64,000 nucleotides of DNA from NCBI RefSeq assembly GCF_024700885.2, contig NZ_CP117016.1; one strand, given 5' to 3'. Position 1 is the first letter of the stretch, and every line of letters begins with the position of its first letter. The position numbers and the translations under genes are program-made. This document shows, piece by piece, positions 4,575 through 53,600 of the stretch. The notes beneath the pieces are model-generated. The model made no database searches and was not told where the DNA came from. It saw only the letters and a list, made by a program, of their open reading frames with translations. Source of the DNA: Escherichia coli (lineage in GTDB: Bacteria; Pseudomonadota; Gammaproteobacteria; Enterobacterales; Enterobacteriaceae).

Positions 4575-7500
4575 ATGAGTAAATTCCTGGACCGGTTTCG
4601 CTACTTCAAACAGAAGGGTGAAACCTTTGCCGATGGGCATGGCCAGCTTCTCAATACCAACCGTGACTGGGAGGATGGATATCGCCAGCGTTGGCAGCAT
4701 GACAAAATCGTCCGCTCTACCCACGGGGTAAACTGCACCGGCTCCTGCAGCTGGAAAATCTACGTCAAAAACGGTCTGGTCACCTGGGAAACCCAGCAGA
4801 CTGACTATCCTCGTACCCGCCCGGACCTGCCAAACCATGAACCTCGCGGCTGCCCGCGCGGTGCCAGCTACTCCTGGTATCTTTACAGTGCCAACCGCCT
4901 GAAATACCCGATGATGCGCAAACGCCTGATGAAAATGTGGCGTGAAGCGAAGGCGCTGCATAGCGATCCGGTTGAGGCATGGGCTTCTATCATTGAAGAC
5001 GCCGATAAAGCGAAAAGCTTTAAGCAGGCGCGTGGACGCGGTGGTTTTGTTCGTTCTTCCTGGCAGGAAGTGAACGAACTGATCGCCGCATCTAACGTTT
5101 ACACCATCAAAAACTACGGCCCGGACCGTGTCGCTGGCTTCTCGCCAATTCCGGCAATGTCGATGGTTTCTTACGCGTCGGGTGCGCGTTATCTTTCGCT
5201 GCTTGGCGGTACTTGCTTAAGCTTCTACGACTGGTACTGCGATCTGCCTCCTGCGTCTCCGCAAACCTGGGGCGAGCAAACTGACGTACCGGAATCTGCT
5301 GACTGGTACAACTCCAGCTACATCATCGCCTGGGGGTCAAACGTGCCGCAGACGCGTACTCCGGATGCTCACTTCTTTACTGAAGTGCGTTACAAAGGCA
5401 CCAAAACTGTTGCCGTCACACCGGACTACGCTGAAATCGCCAAACTGTGCGATCTGTGGCTGGCACCGAAACAGGGCACCGACGCAGCAATGGCGCTGGC
5501 GATGGGCCACGTAATGCTGCGTGAATTCCACCTCGACAACCCAAGCCAGTATTTCACCGACTATGTGCGTCGCTACACCGACATGCCGATGCTGGTGATG
5601 CTGGAAGAACGCGACGGTTACTACGCTGCGGGTCGTATGCTGCGCGCTGCTGATCTGGTGGATGCGCTGGGCCAGGAAAACAATCCGGAATGGAAAACTG
5701 TCGCCTTTAATACCAACGGCGAAATGGTTGCGCCGAACGGTTCTATTGGCTTCCGCTGGGGCGAGAAGGGCAAATGGAATCTTGAACAGCGCGACGGCAA
5801 AACTGGCGAAGAAACCGAGCTGCAACTGAGCCTGCTGGGTAGCCAGGATGAGATCGCTGAGGTGGGCTTCCCGTACTTTGGTGGCGACGGCACGGAACAC
5901 TTCAACAAAGTGGAACTGGAAAACGTGCTGCTGCACAAGCTGCCGGTGAAACGCCTGCAACTGGCTGATGGCAGCACCGCCCTGGTGACCACCGTTTATG
6001 ATCTGACGCTGGCAAACTACGGTCTGGAACGTGGCCTGAACGACGTTAACTGTGCAACCAGCTATGACGATGTGAAAGCTTACACCCCTGCCTGGGCCGA
6101 GCAAATCACTGGCGTTTCTCGCAGCCAGATTATCCGTATTGCCCGTGAATTTGCCGACAATGCTGATAAAACGCACGGTCGTTCGATGATTATCGTCGGC
6201 GCGGGGCTGAACCACTGGTATCACCTCGATATGAACTATCGTGGTCTGATCAACATGCTGATTTTCTGCGGCTGTGTAGGTCAGAGCGGTGGTGGCTGGG
6301 CGCACTATGTAGGTCAGGAAAAACTGCGTCCGCAAACCGGCTGGCAGCCGCTGGCGTTTGCCCTTGACTGGCAGCGTCCGGCGCGTCACATGAACAGCAC
6401 CTCTTATTTCTATAATCACTCCAGCCAGTGGCGTTATGAAACCGTGACCGCAGAAGAGTTGTTGTCGCCGATGGCGGATAAATCCCGTTATACCGGACAT
6501 CTGATCGACTTTAACGTCCGTGCAGAACGTATGGGTTGGCTGCCGTCTGCGCCGCAGTTAGGCACTAACCCGCTGACTATCGCTCGCGAAGCGGAAAAAG
6601 CGGGCATGAATCCGGTGGATTACACCGTGAAATCTCTGAAAGAGGGTTCTATCCGTTTTGCGGCAGAACAACCAGAAAACGGTAAAAACCACCCGCGTAA
6701 CCTGTTCATCTGGCGTTCTAACCTGCTCGGTTCTTCCGGTAAAGGTCATGAGTTTATGCTCAAGTACCTGCTGGGGACGGAGCACGGTATCCAGGGTAAA
6801 GATCTGGGGCAGCAGGGCGGCGTGAAGCCGGAAGAAGTGGACTGGCAGGACAATGGTCTGGAAGGCAAGCTGGATCTGGTGGTGACGCTGGACTTCCGTC
6901 TGTCGAGCACCTGTCTCTATTCCGACATCATTTTGCCGACGGCGACCTGGTACGAAAAAGACGACATGAATACTTCGGATATGCATCCGTTTATTCACCC
7001 GCTGTCTGCGGCGGTCGATCCGGCCTGGAAAGCGAAAAGCGACTGGGAAATCTACAAAGCCATCGCGAAGAAATTCTCCGAAGTGTGCGTTGGTCATCTG
7101 GGTAAAGAAACTGACATCGTCACGCTGCCTATCCAGCACGACTCTGCCGCTGAACTGGCGCAGCCGCTGGATGTGAAAGACTGGAAAAAAGGCGAATGCG
7201 ACCTGATCCCAGGTAAAACTGCACCGCACATTATGGTCGTAGAGCGCGATTATCCGGCAACTTACGAACGCTTTACCTCTATCGGCCCGCTGATGGAGAA
7301 AATCGGTAACGGCGGTAAAGGGATTGCCTGGAACACCCAGAGTGAGATGGATCTGCTGCGTAAGCTCAACTACACCAAAGCGGAAGGTCCGGCAAAAGGT
7401 CAGCCGATGCTCAATACCGCAATTGATGCGGCAGAGATGATCCTGACGCTGGCACCGGAAACCAATGGTCAGGTAGCTGTAAAAGCCTGGGCTGCCCTGA

Positions 7501-22961: not shown

Positions 22962-23698
22962 TTCCTTTCAAATGAAACGGAGCTGCCATGCTCCGTTTAC
23001 TTCGTCATTATTTTTACTTTGTACCCGCGCAGTTATCAAAAGCAAAAGGAATAGGTAAAAATATTCTTCTCAAATTACAGTTAGTTATAAGGATTTCCTT
23101 AACTGCTTCTCCTCACCATCATGTTATTTTCGCCACATCATAATCCTGGGCTTGCTGAAGAATAATTGAAATGATATTAGTAATTCCACTGCCTTTGGTA
23201 GAGGAAAGTGCTAAATAATAATCAATTGTTAAATTATTGTGCATTTCACTACTGGAACTGTAATCAGAAAAGAGAGACATGCTTAACCAATCTCTATTTG
23301 ATTGAATTAAAAGATGTTTGTTAAGACATGGATGCAAGCTATAGATTCTGATACGGTCAATAAAAGAGAATTGCTTAACAATTTTGCAAAATGTATTGGC
23401 GAGTAAGAAGCGCATTTGGTACTTTCCGGGCAACCGCCAGACGATTCTTTATTGGTAATGAGAATAATTAACAATTAAAGAGCGTCGCGAAAGAATAATG
23501 TGTCTCGACAGGGGAGACACAGTACGAATCGACATAAGGTGATCGTCTGAATCACCAGAATAAATAAAGTCGGTGATAGTAATACGTAACGATAAAGTAA
23601 CCTGACAGCAGAAAGTCTCCGAGCCTGTGCAGGGTCCCAATCCGGGATTACACATGCTGGTTAATACCAGTAATTATAATGAGGGAGTCCAAAAAACA

Positions 23699-34868: not shown

Positions 34869-35408
34869 TTAGGATTTATCTTCCTGCGGCATGTGGCGGT
34901 AGATATAGATACCGCTTAACAATGTGAAGATTAAGGTAAGGGCGGTCAGGCCAAAGACTTTAAAGTTGACCCAAATATTTTGCGGCAGCCAGAATGCGAT
35001 GTAGATGTTTGCCAGACCGCAAAGGATAAAGAAAACAGCCCAGGCCAGATTCAGCTTCGACCATACCGGTTGCGGCAGCGTGAGTTCTTTACCCAGCATC
35101 CGCTGAATTAGCGGCTTTTTCATCACCCATTGGCTGACTAACAGGGCTCCCGCAAACAGAGCATAAATGACTGTAACCTTCCATTTAATAAACTCATCAT
35201 TGTGGAAGAACAGCGTCAAGCCACCGAAGACGACCACCAGAACAAAAGTGATCAGGGCCATCTTCTCAACCTTACGAAAGCGAACCCAGCTATATATAAG
35301 CACAATCGCCGTGGCGACGATCAGCGCCGCAGTAGCCGCATAGATGTCATAAATCTTGTAAAACGCGAAAAAGACAACCAGCGGTAAAAAATCAAGAAAC
35401 TGCTTCAT
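34869..35408 (-). CDS. yciB: inner membrane protein YciB (intracellular septation protein A family)
   Basis: 179-aa polytopic membrane ORF. Confidence 0.9.
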
Positions 35409-41834: not shown

Positions 41835-42389
41835 TTATTTTAAGGAAAGCAACTGCTCTACGGTCATATTTTTAATTGCGCTCCGGTTTACAAGAGTCCA
41901 GCCTTGTTGCTCCAGATAAAACAGGAAGGTATCCAGGGTGCAGACCATTGCGCCGTCAGGAACGGTTTCAGTGAATTTGATATTGCCGTGTTCGTCGAGA
42001 CGGATAACCAGGGTGCGTCCGTCCCCGTGAATCATTTTGTCGGGAGACGGGGCGTTATTCTGGCGCAGTTCAGCTTCCATGCGGTCGAACTCAGCAATGT
42101 ATGCCTCTTTAAATGCAGCGGCTTTTTTGCCAGTGAAGCCCATCACCAGGAAAACGAAGCCGTTTTTGGTGATTTGGTACATTGGGAGTTTGCGCCCGGT
42201 TGAGTCGGTGTATTCGCTCGACACAAAATTGTGCTCAGTGAATTTTGCTGAACAGTCCAGATTGCGAATTTTATCCAACACTCGTTCGTGGCGTTTGCCA
42301 AAGAACTCGGCGATCGCAACAGACGTAGTGACAGCGCGACCATTTTCGATGGTTACGTCAGGGTGAGAAAGGGTAAGGATAGTAGCCAT
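41835..42389 (-). CDS. Rha-family phage regulatory protein
   Basis: ORF 41835..42686; the segment from the Met at 42389 (MATILTLSHPDVTIENGRAVTTSVAIAEFFGKRHERVLDKIRNL...) resembles the Rha family; the N-terminal extension in the ORF track is probably not translated. Confidence 0.65.
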   Translation of the reverse strand: MATILTLSHPDVTIENGRAVTTSVAIAEFFGKRHERVLDKIRNLDCSAKFTEHNFVSSEYTDSTGRKLPMYQITKNGFVFLVMGFTGKKAAAFKEAYIAEFDRMEAELRQNNAPSPDKMIHGDGRTLVIRLDEHGNIKFTETVPDGAMVCTLDTFLFYLEQQGWTLVNRSAIKNMTVEQLLSLK

Positions 42390-43253
42390 GATGGCAGCCT
42401 CCGCGATGAATTTGATTAACTCACCACCGAGGTTTTCCACGACCATAAGGGTGGTGAGACGTACAGGGGTGGAAATACCGGTCATCACGGAACCCGGCCA
42501 GCCTTGCGGCTGCCCTGCACGCCCCACCATAATGCGAATGTGGCTGTGCTTAACGCATAAAAAAACCGCCTGAGCGCGGTTATGCGCCGTGAATGATTTC
42601 GGGTTTCCACGCCCGGCACCCGTTTTATGAGGTGCAGGTGCACTATAATTCCACCCGTTCTGGTTTTCAATAGCTACATTCAACATTTTCTCTACCTTTC
42701 ATCACCGAAGTGAACTTTGTTGATGCGGTGCCTGGTGCCTCCAGGTGATGTTAACCAGTTAACAATTAACGCCGGATACAGAGAATCCACCCATAACACT
42801 GTTTTTGGTTTTAACTGTTCCGCGTGCGCTGAGCCGCATTCACCGCATCACAAAATTCACTTTAAAAAGGGCGGCAGAGCAGTCACGGAGTAAAACTGAT
42901 ACCGCCAAAAGTCACCAGAAAATTGATAACAGAGGGCGTTGCAGCGGAGTTGTCACTTAAGCGTATGGTCAACCTGACAACCCGGTGTCCTCAACGGGGG
43001 AAGGAATAACCCCGCCATACTTACCGCCGCGCCATTTCGCGGAGTGCCACAACCGGAAGCGCACGGTCGAACTAAATTTAACGACACCGTACAGAGAGAC
43101 CAATTTCGCCGTGCGCTTTCGCGTTATGCCCTGACTTTTCAGGGACATATCCTTTCAGTAAACTGTCAGTGCCGGATGTTCACCCGTGTCCGGCGCACGC
43201 ACTCCACCTGACCCGTGGAGAACTCCTTAATTACCAACCCTCAGGAGGGTGAA

Positions 43254-43532
43254 ATGGATAAAAAGCAAATTGAGGCCCTGCAATCTATTATTGAAAAACA
43301 AGATGAAGCTATCAGGATTCTTTCATATCGCACTGATATGATACTAAATATGCTTTCTGCATTAACGGCTGCGCTTGGTGGTACAAAAACAAACGTATAC
43401 CGCGAAGTTGTTATTCAACAGATAGATAAATTTGAAAAAACCATACCAGGTATTAATGCTCATCTTGCAGAACAAGAGAAAGACCATGCTCTTATGGCAA
43501 TTTCTTCAGTAGCTCTCCCGAAAGTTGAGTAG
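43254..43532 (+). CDS. hypothetical protein, oriented against the early-left operon
   Basis: ORF 43215..43532; ATG at 43254 preceded by AGGAGG; 93 aa, predicted helical. Confidence 0.5.
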   Translation: MDKKQIEALQSIIEKQDEAIRILSYRTDMILNMLSALTAALGGTKTNVYREVVIQQIDKFEKTIPGINAHLAEQEKDHALMAISSVALPKVE

Positions 43533-43905
43533 TTTTAATTGTTGTTTTGAAATAATCACTGCTTTCACATTTGAGTGATTTCATGGCAATCCAAATGCGG
43601 GCCTCTGTGCCTGCATTTGGTTCCAGTTGCTGTAGACGTTTTGCGTCTTCCAAAAGTAAGGCGATAATGTGTTTCAGCTTCTCATCATTTGCTTGATTCT
43701 TGTTTTCAGGCGAATTCTGTCCGCCGAATAGGCGCTTCTCTTCATACAGACCTATAAAGGCACGACGCACGTTACCGGATATAGTATCGATGGTTTCCTT
43801 TTCTACAGTACTCAGGTCAAGAGTCGCCAGTTGAGAGCGAACCACATTCGATGCCATTTCCTGGAATGGTACTGGTAAATCTTTAAATTCCATCGTCAAC
43901 CTCAT
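43492..43905 (-). CDS. hypothetical early-left protein
   Basis: 137-aa ORF, start overlaps the stop of the upstream gene (ATGA coupling); 3' end overlaps the convergent 43254..43532 gene by ~40 bp. Confidence 0.5.
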   Translation of the reverse strand: MRLTMEFKDLPVPFQEMASNVVRSQLATLDLSTVEKETIDTISGNVRRAFIGLYEEKRLFGGQNSPENKNQANDEKLKHIIALLLEDAKRLQQLEPNAGTEARIWIAMKSLKCESSDYFKTTIKTTQLSGELLKKLP

Positions 43906-44138
43906 CAGTCAGTGTTTCTGGTTAACCAGCGACGTGCGCCAGCTTCAGTTTTAAACGTTTTGCTTCTGGTATATGTCATCGCGGTAAACGTGCCGTCCTG
44001 GTTGGGAAACACGCCGCATACCAGAGATTCGTTGTTGCCAAGCTCGATAGTATCCATGCTGACCTCATTTCCCCTTAACGCCGGGGTAGCGGAACAAAAA
44101 CCTGCTGCATAGTTATTAAAGTTGAACCCTGCCGTCAT
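43905..44138 (-). CDS. hypothetical early-left protein (first gene downstream of the putative PL)
   Basis: 77-aa ORF directly downstream of the operator-containing promoter region. Confidence 0.5.
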   Translation of the reverse strand: MTAGFNFNNYAAGFCSATPALRGNEVSMDTIELGNNESLVCGVFPNQDGTFTAMTYTRSKTFKTEAGARRWLTRNTD

Positions 44139-44239
44139 GTTCTTACGCCTCGGGCTGGCTACTTACCCCCTGACCACTGCTTGGTAACTCGAAGTATTGC
44201 CCGGCGTTCTGTGGGGCGGGGTGGGTTGGTATGTTGTTA

Positions 44240-44270
44240 AGGTAACAAGAGTTACCTTTCGAGTCAATAC
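44240..44270 (-). promoter_or_regulatory. putative PL/OL: -35 TTGACT with operator palindrome GGTAAC-N4-GTTACC
   Basis: On the minus strand TTGACT (44262-44267) followed by palindrome ggtaacaagagttacc (44241-44256); same half-site as the operators at the cI-cro junction. Confidence 0.45.
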
Positions 44271-44297
44271 AATGTTGCAAAAGGTACATTTGAGGGC

Positions 44298-44325
44298 ATA
44301 AAAAACCCGCAATGAATGCGGGTTC
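44298..44325 (-). terminator. terminator immediately downstream of the repressor gene
   Basis: On the minus strand, stem aacccgcattcattgcgggtt followed by TTTTTTAT. Confidence 0.65.
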
Positions 44326-44329
44326 TGAC

Positions 44330-45004
44330 TCAGTCTAAGTATTGATGTATTTGTGAAACTTTACCTTTAATGGTGTAACCACCATTCAGTTCGATGGGTT
44401 TGTAAAGCGGATTCAGTGACAACAGATAGATGTTTGGTCCGTCAATCGCAACTTTTTTTAGTGTTACGTTTGGCGTTCCTTCCAATTGGATTAAGATTAT
44501 TTTTCCCACCAGTTCTCTAATGTTACTTGAGCATGGTGTGATCAGCACGGTAGATCCGTCGGGGATGGTTGGGAGGCCGTTAGAGTTTGTCATCGCATCT
44601 CCCTCAACATGCAATAAAAAAGAGTTTTCAGCGGTTTTTGTCATGACATCAACCCAGTTCTTAATACCAGGAATCTTGGTTACTGGACAACTCATATCCC
44701 AATAACCAGCCTGTTCCCACGTTAAAACGGGCAACCGGGCGATGTTGTCACTAATGTAAGGGTACTGATTCAGACGCAGATCATCGGTTTTATCGTGACC
44801 GTCCTTTCCATAAAGAATCCATTCAGGAGATTTGGAAAGCAATTTTGACAGTAGATACAAATTCTCACCGTCAGGTTTTGAAGAGCCATTTTCCCATTTT
44901 GTTACGGATACACGAGATATGCCGATTGCTTTCGCAACCTGCTGTTGGGTTAATCCAACGTCTTTTCGACGATTCCGAATACGTTCGCTGATAGTGTTTT
45001 TCAT
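44330..45004 (-). CDS. cI: CI-like prophage repressor (HTH-XRE + S24 LexA-like peptidase domain)
   Basis: ORF 44330..45103; HTH (VGLTQQQVAKAIGISRVSVTKWENG) and C-terminal autocleavage domain; start placed at the Met at 45004 so operators stay intergenic (alternative Met at 45046). Confidence 0.75.
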   Translation of the reverse strand: MKNTISERIRNRRKDVGLTQQQVAKAIGISRVSVTKWENGSSKPDGENLYLLSKLLSKSPEWILYGKDGHDKTDDLRLNQYPYISDNIARLPVLTWEQAGYWDMSCPVTKIPGIKNWVDVMTKTAENSFLLHVEGDAMTNSNGLPTIPDGSTVLITPCSSNIRELVGKIILIQLEGTPNVTLKKVAIDGPNIYLLSLNPLYKPIELNGGYTIKGKVSQIHQYLD

Positions 45005-45068
45005 GTAACCAATGTTACTACCAAGTGATGTTGCTATGGTTGACATTGTTATGTAACTATTGTTACCC
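45005..45068. promoter_or_regulatory. putative OR/PR/PRM region with GTAAC-N4-GTTAC operators
   Basis: Palindromes gtaaccaatgttac (45005-45018) and gtaactattgttac (45053-45066); perfect -35 TTGACA at 45040-45045 facing the cro-like gene. Confidence 0.5.
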
Positions 45069-45095
45069 TTCTGCTCGAAATAACAGGAGAGTTTT

Positions 45096-50895: not shown

Positions 50896-50965
50896 GAGAC
50901 CCGGCGGGGGAGAAATCCCTCGCCACCGCTGATGTGTCAGGCATCCTCAACGCACCCGCACTTAA

Positions 50966-50990
50966 CCCGCTTCGGCGGGTTTTGTTTTTT
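50966..50990 (+). terminator. terminator downstream of hok
   Basis: Stem cccgc/gcggg with ttcg loop followed by a T-rich run. Confidence 0.65.
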
Positions 50991-52401: not shown

Positions 52402-52782
52402 ATGACCGAGCGCATAGAATTTGTTTTACCTTACCCGCCGACGGTGAACACTTACTGGCGACGCCGTGGCAGCACATATTTTATCTCGGAGGAGGGAAAG
52501 CGTTATCGCCGGGCTGTGGCGCTTATTGTTCGCCAGCAGCGGCTGAAATTAAGCCTGTCCGGAAGGCTGGCGATAAAGGTGATTGCAGAGCCACCGGATA
52601 AGCGTCGTCGCGACCTGGACAATATCCTGAAAGCACCGCTGGATGCGCTGACGCATGCGGGAGTGTTAATGGACGATGAGCAGTTTGATGAAATCAATAT
52701 CGTTCGTGGTCAGCCAGTATCTGGTGGACGTCTGGGGGTGAAGATTTACCCCATAATGCATGAAGAGCAGGTCAAAAAATGA
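52402..52782 (+). CDS. rusA: Holliday junction resolvase RusA
   Basis: 126-aa ORF with the RusA-like pattern (LPYPPTVNTYWRRRG...RRRDLDN...). Confidence 0.8.
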   Translation: MTERIEFVLPYPPTVNTYWRRRGSTYFISEEGKRYRRAVALIVRQQRLKLSLSGRLAIKVIAEPPDKRRRDLDNILKAPLDALTHAGVLMDDEQFDEINIVRGQPVSGGRLGVKIYPIMHEEQVKK

Positions 52783-53600
52783 AACTGGAAGATTTACCGA
52801 AATACTACTCCCCAAAATCCCCTGGCCTGACCGATGCATCGGCCTCAACGTCAAAAGATGCGCTGAGTATCACTGATGTGATGGCCGCGCAGGGCATGAC
52901 ACAGAATCGGGCTGAGATGGGGTTTTCTGCGTTCCTGGGGAAAATGGGCATCAGTATGAATGACAGGGCGCGGGCAACAGAATTACTGGCAGATTATGCA
53001 CTCAGTCGGTGCGATCGTGTGGCGGCGTTGAGAAAACTTCCGGCAGAAATAAAACCGGTAGTGATGCGCATTATGGCTTCGTACGCTTTTGAGGATTATG
53101 CCCGCAGCGCAGCGAGTAAAAAGCAGTGCCCCTGTTGCCGAGGGGAAAAATTTATTGAAGGCGAAGTTTTTACAAACAAGGTTCAGTATCCGGATGGCAA
53201 GCCGCCAGTATGGGCAAAGTGTACGAAAGGTGTGTATCCGTCTTACTGGGAAGAATGGAAAAAAATTCGGGAGGTGGTGAAAGTTTCTTGTCCTGAATGT
53301 AAAGGGAAGGGGGAGATTTCCACTGCCTGTAAAGACTGCCGTGGGCGTGGTGTTGCCATTCATCGTGAAGAGTCGGTAAAACGTGGTATGCCTGTTATCA
53401 GAGACTGCCAGCGTTGTGGTGGTCGTGGCTGTGAAAGACTACCATCAACGGAGGCATTTAATGCCATACGCAAAGTGACGAGTGCTATCACGCTTGATAC
53501 GTGGAAAAAATCAGTGAAACGCTTTTACGATACGTTGGTGGTTCGGTTTGACATTGAAGAGGCATGGGCGGAGCGGCAGTTAAAGAGGGTAACGCGATAG
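52779..53600 (+). CDS. putative late-gene antiterminator Q (large, multi-CxxC type)
   Basis: 273-aa ORF with several CxxC pairs, immediately upstream of a PR'/tR'-like promoter-terminator pair. Confidence 0.55.
   Translation: MKLEDLPKYYSPKSPGLTDASASTSKDALSITDVMAAQGMTQNRAEMGFSAFLGKMGISMNDRARATELLADYALSRCDRVAALRKLPAEIKPVVMRIMASYAFEDYARSAASKKQCPCCRGEKFIEGEVFTNKVQYPDGKPPVWAKCTKGVYPSYWEEWKKIREVVKVSCPECKGKGEISTACKDCRGRGVAIHREESVKRGMPVIRDCQRCGGRGCERLPSTEAFNAIRKVTSAITLDTWKKSVKRFYDTLVVRFDIEEAWAERQLKRVTR

Follow-up and report, generated by a model that had tools for sequence, protein, structure and literature searches.

The dicBF operon of the Qin prophage of Escherichia coli K-12 lies beside the repressor gene dicA and runs ydfA-ydfB-ydfC-dicF-dicB-ydfD, with a repressor-controlled promoter directly 5' of ydfA and a leader of ~330 nucleotides (nt) that holds an RNase III helix ahead of the small RNA DicF and its terminator (PMC5069750, PMC10448788). 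DicF and DicB inhibit cell division, alter metabolism and protect against phage, and ydfA, ydfB and ydfC are without known function in the published K-12 work. The locus described here, positions 43,254–44,138 of a 64,000-nt stretch of E. coli DNA (contig NZ_CP117016.1; hereafter the window), comprises two open reading frames on the minus strand (ORF1 and ORF2), next to a phage repressor gene, and a third on the plus strand (ORF3) that converges on them. This region is a variant of the known dicBF-type operon, in which ydfA comes first and DicF lies downstream, and not an unexplained substitute for the lambda antiterminator N. Its new part is a rare ORF2/ORF3 insert, with two uncharacterised small proteins and a conserved convergent overlap; most of the region is ordinary.

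Other well-known early regions share features with this arrangement. In the Rac prophage, racR is followed by ydaG-ydaF, a convergent sieB gene, KilS and kilR. In phage lambda, which holds N, nutL and nutR, the first gene of the leftward promoter pL is met tail-to-tail by a gene on the opposite strand, with sieB ending at 35036 and N at 35037. The lambda OOP RNA overlaps the 3' end of cII, and this type of convergent transcript lowers the expression of the early gene (PMC7067206); more generally, genes antisense to lytic operons are typical accessory loci expressed in lysogens (PMC7067206). HK022, on the other hand, is a lambdoid phage without N, with put RNAs.

An early-left operon of the dicBF type

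The window carries a lambdoid prophage at ompW, and the 1.2 kb around the region match the E. coli MLI114 chromosome at 100% identity. In the orientation of the window, the MLI114 order is ompW, integrase, excisionase, an 814-aa exonuclease, a YdaE-family protein, a Rha-family protein and a truncated dicB pseudogene, followed by ORF3/ORF2, the DUF1391 gene (ORF1), a cI-like repressor of the LexA family, Cro, a cII-like protein of the YdaT family and the replication genes, and, further on, a Q-like antitermination protein, lysis genes, terminase, and head and tail genes. The prophage appears complete and integrated beside ompW. Of 5426 complete E. coli genomes, 4364 contain parts of the 1.2-kb region, and 84 have no less than 80% of it in one place. 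The identity of the region is nearly certain, and it probably represents the promoter-proximal part of the early-left operon, on the minus strand, of a lambdoid prophage of the Qin/Rac lineage that lacks an N-nut system. The elements of this operon, from the repressor to DicF, are the following:

44330–45046, minus strand: cI-like repressor gene (LexA family, helix-turn-helix and peptidase S24-type C-terminus), from the ORF list and named 'LexA family protein' by the Prokaryotic Genome Annotation Pipeline (PGAP) in the MLI114 record
44296–44326, minus strand: intrinsic terminator of the repressor transcript, a 10-bp stem with a U run, from RNA folding
44239–44267, minus strand: pL, with a -35 TTGACT (44262–44267), a 17-nt spacer and an extended -10 TGtTACCTT (44239–44247), from a position weight matrix (PWM)
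44241–44256, unstranded: operator oL, GGTAAC-N4-GTTACC, overlapping the spacer and -10 of pL, from a count of the exact core in 64 kb
43905–44057, minus strand: ydfA homologue (DUF1391), 50 aa, from the PGAP name 'DUF1391 family protein', phrog_751 (1.4e-44) and its likeness to K-12 YdfA
42921–43253, minus strand: conserved untranslated dicF leader with a long-range helix (arms 43105–43126 and 43050–43071), from alignments A1, A9 and A10
42869–42920, minus strand: DicF small RNA and terminator hairpin, from Rfam RF00039 (75.8 bits, gathering 48, E 4e-16)

The assignment to the dicBF type rests on DicF, which lies downstream of ydfA on the same strand and behind the conserved leader, ~570 nt downstream of ORF2. 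This leader of ~330 nt is conserved in the window, in K-12 and in DLI.5a, and it is also present in Qin-type, Rac-type and P2-like prophages. Among 30 diverse prophage loci, 95% of the cells in the 20 pairs of its helix are paired, compared to 25–40% when the partner is slid, with compensatory changes in five pairs and with U-G pairs that fit only the pL-sense strand. The helix matches the position of the K-12 RNase III cut that yields the 190-nt DicF (PMC10448788), and it is likely an RNase III site. The Rfam search that covered the leader helix reported no match. The conserved leader was also considered as an RNA substituting for N, a possibility set aside since the leader is found in P2-like prophages as well and coincides with the known RNase III site, which makes processing the simpler explanation.

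DicF-like terminator hairpins (for example, GGCGGTACCAG...CTGGTATCCGCCC followed by T5) are also seen at the DicF position in a Salmonella locus (L003, 5700–5780) and in a P2-like locus (L014, ~4590–4650); they fall below the Rfam DicF threshold, and may be diverged small RNA variants that end the same leader. In K-12 Rac, the small RNA KilS is annotated in the equivalent place.

The first gene of the operon belongs to a named family. ORF1 is ~86% identical to YdfA of K-12 Qin and shares its core with YdaF; it exhibits the length of ~50 residues and the M-x-x-I-[DE]-L-G-N-N-E-S-L-V...F-P-N-Q-D-G-T-F-T core of the DUF1391 (YdfA/YdaF) family. The preliminary description of the region, made from the sequence alone, listed ORF1 and ORF2 as genes of 77 and 137 aa and of unknown function. 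Both ORFs exist, although their lengths were over-read and are likely 50 and 133 aa; the functional label still applies to ORF2 and to the role of the DUF1391 family, but not to the naming of ORF1. The start of ORF1 is most likely the ATG at 44057, which is the PGAP start and the same residue as the starts of YdfA and YdaF in K-12. The longer version (to 44138) is probably an over-extension, as its 27 additional codons are frame-shifted in DLI.5a, have no ATG in K-12 and are not conserved as protein.

The 40 nt before this ATG, including a GAGG Shine-Dalgarno (SD) sequence, are invariant. This stretch (44058–44100, minus strand; GTTCCGCTACCCCRGCGTTAAGGGGAAATGAGGTCAGC) is the same between prophages with unrelated repressors and promoters, and contains a small CCCC...GGGG hairpin just 5' of the SD; it may be a translational control element. 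A reading of YdfA as 'head decoration protein D' was treated as a mis-annotation, its sole support being a match at E 0.19 with gpD/SHP in the PDB sequence search. Features named 'head-DNA stabilization protein D' also lie under the match to the region in phage records H16, H17 and H20; they may be YdfA homologues, and the label is probably an annotation error.

The control signals upstream of ydfA were found where the preliminary description had placed them. The repressor gene is directly followed by its G+C-rich terminator hairpin (-15.1 kcal/mol, z -3.86, a result equalled by none of 200 shuffles), which was missed by a simple terminator scanner, probably as the stem extends into the T run. 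Beyond it stands pL, with a PWM score of 12.6 compared to 13.3 for the rightward promoter pR (45040–45069, TTGACA-18-TGtTACCCT), which has the same architecture. The exact core GTAAC-N4-GTTAC of the operator occurs at only three sites in the 64 kb, namely 44242 (oL) and 45005 and 45053 (both in oR); with one mismatch allowed, there are six matches in total, a number that 0 of 100 shuffles reach. This restriction of the core to oL and oR is good evidence that the palindrome is the operator. The first ~45 nt of the pL transcript (44190–44236, minus strand; ACCAACCCACCCCGCCCCACAG) are C-rich, G-poor and unstructured, with the composition of a Rho-utilisation site; folding of the pL leader gave no more structure than shuffled sequence (z +0.6).

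Like the Qin operon, the locus thus holds a repressor-controlled promoter directly 5' of ydfA and the leader, helix and DicF terminator further on. Unlike it, the repressor is of the cleavable cI/LexA type and not DicA; ydfB and ydfC are missing, and a 640-bp ORF2/ORF3 insert stands before the dicF leader; a C4/isrK-Rha module has taken the place of dicB, of which a remnant is left; and the prophage looks complete and not cryptic. With Rac it shares a DUF1391 protein (YdaF in Rac) near the promoter, the lack of an annotated N, a plus-strand gene that runs towards the promoter-proximal genes and into their 3' end, and a related leader with a small RNA that, in Rac, is followed by a division inhibitor. 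However, the convergent gene of Rac encodes SieB, a protein of 162 aa with no similarity to ORF3, and its overlap with ydaF is 4 bp, compared to 41 bp here.

The absence of the N antiterminator

The early-left region had been described as holding no recognisable N gene and no left-operon ORF with the arginine-rich N-terminus of N proteins, and both statements hold. BLASTP against lambda N gave no alignment at E ≤ 100; the PHROG matches of ORF1, ORF2 and ORF3 are all to families of unknown function; no significant Pfam match was obtained for ORF2 or ORF3; and ORF1 (from either start) and ORF2 have 0–1 arginine residues among their first 25. The RNA sites of an N system were likewise not found. 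The only site in the 64 kb with the boxA pattern YGCTCTTWA, at 23476, does not belong to the prophage (no separate search was made for boxB), and nut sites were rejected for the lack of a boxA inside the prophage. Furthermore, cro and ydaT overlap by 4 bp, so that there is no spacer for nutR and tR1. In these respects, the locus differs from lambda, despite the shared tail-to-tail meeting of the first pL gene with a gene on the opposite strand.

An RNA of the HK022 put type replacing N was also considered and rejected, given the unstructured pL leader and a covariance model that found nothing in the early regions of the prophage; its best matches in the window reached 9–12.6 bits, all of them outside the prophage. 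This model recovers HK022 putL and putR at 92–93 bits, although it was built from these two sequences only, which makes it a weak test. The locus therefore resembles HK022 in having an immunity region without an N antiterminator, but not in its put elements, nor was a Nun-like gene found.

It is concluded that N is truly absent and that this is the normal state of the lineage; K-12 Qin and Rac are also without an annotated N. Consequently, the genes that had been proposed to stand there instead of N are those of a known dicBF-type early-left operon from Qin/Rac-like prophages, a lineage without annotated N, and their presence represents a variant of a studied operon with no anomaly to explain. 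Terminator scans detected no intrinsic terminator on the minus strand between pL and DicF, which suggests that DicF could be reached without antitermination. Outside this interval, an isrK-type terminator lies at 42564–42581. On the rightward side, a strong intrinsic terminator is found at 50964–50981 on the plus strand (AACCCGCTTCGGCGGGTT and a T run), between the pR replication operon and the Q-like gene and, more precisely, between hokD and that gene (52779–53600).

These terminators, together with that of DicF, bear on the proposal that YdfA or ORF2 is a non-canonical processive antiterminator replacing N. Both genes hold the position of lambda N, directly after pL, and early transcripts would have to pass the DicF terminator, the isrK-type terminator on the way to rha-int, and the one at 50964–50981 on the way to Q. 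The proposal is nevertheless very improbable. YdfA and ORF2 have neither an arginine-rich motif nor similarity to N, the prophage holds no boxA, and the overlapping cro and ydaT leave no room for nutR. Moreover, neither protein is universal, as K-12 Qin lacks ORF2, Salmonella Rac-like prophages lack both ydfA and the first of the two modules that make up ORF2 (A and B, described below), and Rac has ydaG and ydaF. The variable C-termini that follow modules A and B also resemble cargo rather than a core regulator.

The ORF2/ORF3 insert and its convergent overlap

In an alignment of the window with K-12 and DLI.5a, ORF2 and ORF3 together form a 640-bp insert relative to K-12 Qin, placed between the ydfC stop and the dicF leader. 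Its junctions fall exactly at the ORF2 and ORF3 start codons, and it is AT-rich, with a GC content of 36–40% compared to 50–55% in the flanks. The insert is present in 123 of the 5426 complete E. coli genomes, and K-12 Qin is without it. In O157:H7, the same slot holds a different protein whose first ~60 residues are shared with ORF2 (module A), and O157, SE11 and DLI.5a carry ydfABC with variable cargo in this slot. The elements of the insert and its surroundings are the following:

43492–43893, minus strand: ORF2, 133 aa, a fusion of two unrelated helical-hairpin modules, A (residues 1–60) and B (~69–110, with an EPNAGTEARIW motif), from phrog_1363 and module-specific PHROGs
43254–43532, plus strand: ORF3, 92 aa, convergent with ORF2, all-helical and soluble-looking, in the sieB slot; phrog_18692 (5.9e-63, unknown function)
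43492–43532, both strands: 41 bp coding for the C-termini of ORF2 and ORF3, from the ORF coordinates
43136–43164, plus strand: best ORF3 promoter candidate, TTTTCA-17-TAAACT, weak, with a PWM score of 10.1, just below the 90th percentile (10.4)
43591–43620, plus strand: 12-bp hairpin inside ORF2, 60 nt past the ORF3 stop, from RNA folding

ORF2 starts at the ATG at 43893 (MEFKDLP), a start shared by all homologues and preceded by a GAGG SD of its own. The 137-aa version with an ATGA coupling was discarded, as every homologue begins with MEFKDLP and DLI.5a lacks the upstream ATG. Because of this start, ORF1 and ORF2 are separated by an 11-nt gap and share no ATGA, and the translational coupling that had been proposed for them falls away.

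The homologues of ORF2 belong to two groups, matching either residues 1–60 (MEFKDLP...) or residues ~69–110 (ELKHVIALLLEDAKRLQQxEPNAGTEARIW), and both modules recur at the N-terminal end of numerous small proteins whose C-termini are unrelated. The gene that comes first after the repressor in Rac-like prophages of Salmonella encodes module B alone, as a protein of 71 aa. MAFFT aligned A onto B, as in a tandem duplication of a single helical hairpin, but this origin was rejected on an hhalign probability of 0.3%. Modules A and B represent two small-protein families with a common start and many different ends, which mark a cargo slot in the early-left operon; the slot is found in very common E. 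coli and Salmonella prophages, and slots of this kind have repeatedly yielded exclusion and host-takeover functions.

ORF3 is preceded by an AGGAGG SD, 5 nt before its ATG, as had been noted for a gene of 93 aa on the opposite strand; its length is 92 aa. Among 5.8 billion proteins, its small family accounts for ~26 clusters; E. coli and Salmonella contribute to it, together with a few distant members. Compared to a Salmonella homologue of 71% identity, the ratio of nonsynonymous to synonymous divergence (dN/dS) is 0.25 at a dS of 0.74, with changes concentrated at third codon positions, and this pattern marks ORF3 as a genuine gene under purifying selection.

Profile and structure searches, which the preliminary description had proposed as a check, revealed no N family and no function for the three proteins, beyond the placement of ORF1 in DUF1391. 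The AlphaFold2 (AF2) model of ORF2 consists of four helices in two helical hairpins, with a predicted local distance difference test score (pLDDT) of 68, and that of ORF3 is all-helical with a pLDDT of 69, both of moderate confidence; their Foldseek matches in PDB all have E > 1. No useful match for ORF2 was obtained from Pfam, NCBIfam, PADLOC, PDB sequence and profile searches or Foldseek, nor any match for ORF3 from Pfam, PDB or Foldseek. In PADLOC 2.0, the sole match of ORF2 is a HerA fragment (E 0.022), and ORF1 and ORF3 have none. Two candidate identities were rejected for ORF3: SieB, since BLASTP against the Rac and lambda SieB proteins gave no alignment at E ≤ 100, and a RelB-like antitoxin, since the NF048017 match reached 15.9 bits compared to a cut-off of 50.

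The most consistent feature of ORF3 is its placement. Its overlap with ORF2, estimated at about 40 bp in the preliminary description, measures 41 bp, with the ORF2 stop at 43492. The same 41-bp overlap with a gene of modules A and B is found in 47 of 50 IMG/VR loci, and in Salmonella Rac-like prophages the ORF3 homologue converges on the module-B gene with the same 41 bp. P2-like prophages (int and the C repressor on one side, cox and gene X on the other) carry ORF3 homologues at 42–47% identity that converge on gene X and overlap it by 21 or 41 bp; gene X lacks module B. In both types of prophage, lambdoid and P2-like, the overlap is with an early gene next to the immunity switch and is present in every case in which this gene is intact. 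The partner proteins all end in ..[GE][EA]LL[KSI].., because this tail is the antisense reading of the ORF3 C-terminus.

Whether ORF2 and ORF3 could instead form a two-component toxin–antitoxin (TA) or anti-phage defence pair, travelling as a mobile insert, has to be weighed against this distribution. Such a pair would account for the movement of both genes as one AT-rich insert, for the fact that ORF3, in E. coli and Salmonella, always accompanies its partner's module-B end, and for the RelB-like match of ORF3 at E 0.011, and the early-left region of prophages is a known site for exclusion genes. However, that match lies far below its cut-off (15.9 bits compared to 50), PADLOC gave no meaningful match, and type II TA genes do not typically converge and overlap. 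In addition, the P2-like homologues pair with unrelated proteins without module B, which argues that the conserved partner is the overlap and not a protein domain; module B is widespread as the start of dozens of other small proteins; and the one module-A protein examined, that of O157, has no ORF3 beside it. A TA or defence pair is consequently considered quite unlikely.

A second alternative is that ORF3 is a small accessory gene without any regulatory link to the operon, and the overlap a passive recombination scar. The junctions at the two start codons are compatible with such an origin, as are the partner tails, which would merely be the antisense translation of the ORF3 end, and SE11, where the partner has decayed and ORF3 is intact. 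On the other hand, the overlap has been kept (21–41 bp) across protein identities of 42–100% and two phage types, dS is lower in the overlap (0.34) than in the remainder of ORF3 (0.87), which a dual constraint would predict, and some interference must arise from a gene that lies head-on within a strong early operon. This alternative is therefore regarded as rather unlikely.

Predicted regulation of ORF3 and neighbouring elements

The geometry fits the antisense interference that the preliminary description had suggested between ORF3 and ORF2, and its conservation makes the idea of antisense control directly testable. The known case closest to it is lambda OOP, also a convergent transcript over the 3' end of an early gene; unlike OOP, which is non-coding, ORF3 encodes a protein, and an RNase III-dependent effect would apply to it only by analogy. 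As to location, the region had been called a common one for exclusion or host-takeover functions, in agreement with the presence of DicF just downstream and with the position of ORF3, which is that of sieB in lambda and Rac: on the opposite strand and converging on the promoter-proximal pL genes.

In the repressed prophage, the repressor bound at oL would keep pL off, and ORF3 would probably be the only left-arm gene transcribed, as an accessory ('moron') gene with its own weak promoter in the sieB slot. Upon inactivation of the repressor, pL would be expected to transcribe ydfA and ORF2, to continue antisense through ORF3, and to reach the leader and DicF without antitermination. RNase III and RNase E, shown to release DicF in K-12, would do so here as well, as the conserved helix suggests; DicF would then act on ftsZ and other host mRNAs, and its terminator and the isrK-type terminator would limit read-through. 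Given the orientation of ORF3 towards pL and the 41 bp that it has in common with ORF2, strong transcription from pL would be predicted to switch it off, either by head-on collision or by formation of an RNA duplex, and ORF3 transcription might in turn dampen leaky transcripts from pL. This proposed switch of ORF3 is plausible. As a best guess, YdfA, ORF2 and ORF3 are small helical binders of host or phage proteins, with a role in takeover for ORF2 and in exclusion or regulation for ORF3.

Several points weigh against this interpretation of the locus. The strand expressed in each state is deduced entirely from the sequence, and the promoter candidate of ORF3 is weak and is present with the same sequence in K-12, which has no ORF3. 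Rho-dependent termination could occur in the 570-nt untranslated stretch before DicF, and the 41-bp overlap could be a passive by-product of the recombination that produced the insert, with the partner tails (..GELLKK..) merely antisense to the ORF3 end. The structure models are of moderate confidence (pLDDT 68–69), and no fold or family gives a function. Finally, this is not a canonical dicBF operon, since the window lacks ydfB and ydfC and retains dicB only as a truncated remnant.

A broader proposal would make ORF3 the founder of a new small-protein family, which the repressed prophage expresses and whose gene always stands head-on in the first early operon beside the immunity switch, in lambdoid as well as P2/186-like prophages, with the overlap as a second switch at the RNA level: the lysogen would make ORF3, for exclusion or for damping toxic early genes such as DicF, and induction would silence it through pL transcription. 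This proposal is unlikely.

A clear sigma-70 promoter for ORF3 was looked for and discarded, since the scans gave just the one weak candidate listed above, whose percentile was taken from the best PWM scores in 560-nt chunks of the window. Near its position, -10-like hexamers are found in Salmonella (TGaTAAGCT) and in a P2-like locus (TGtTATTAT). Past the stop of ORF3, the hairpin inside ORF2 folds at -20.1 kcal/mol on the plus strand (z -4.6) and at -17.2 kcal/mol on the minus strand, with no U tract after it. In the Salmonella copy, as read from its sequence, pairing is kept through G-U pairs on the plus (ORF3-sense) strand only, and the hairpin may form the 3' end of the ORF3 transcript or stabilise it. 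The same 43591–43620 segment, a near-perfect 12-bp inverted repeat, encodes PNAGTEARIW, the most conserved peptide of module B. The pL-sense RNA, for its part, is untranslated over the ~570 nt from ORF2 to DicF, which consist of the antisense of ORF3 and the conserved leader.

Unlike the window, DLI.5a, O157 and SE11 carry both ydfB and ydfC. Downstream of DicF, dicB is replaced in the window by a module similar to immI of phage P1 (42447–42670, minus strand), which comprises a promoter (TTGAAA-17-TATAGT), an RNA similar to isrK/c4-a1b1 (67.7 bits), a C4 antisense RNA (81.9 bits) and a gene of the Rha family, antirepressor-like. The 283-aa Rha coding sequence annotated by PGAP crosses the C4 and isrK RNAs and a strong terminator, which makes the ATG at 42389 the probable true start. 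The C4/isrK pair is also found in the P2-like locus L014.

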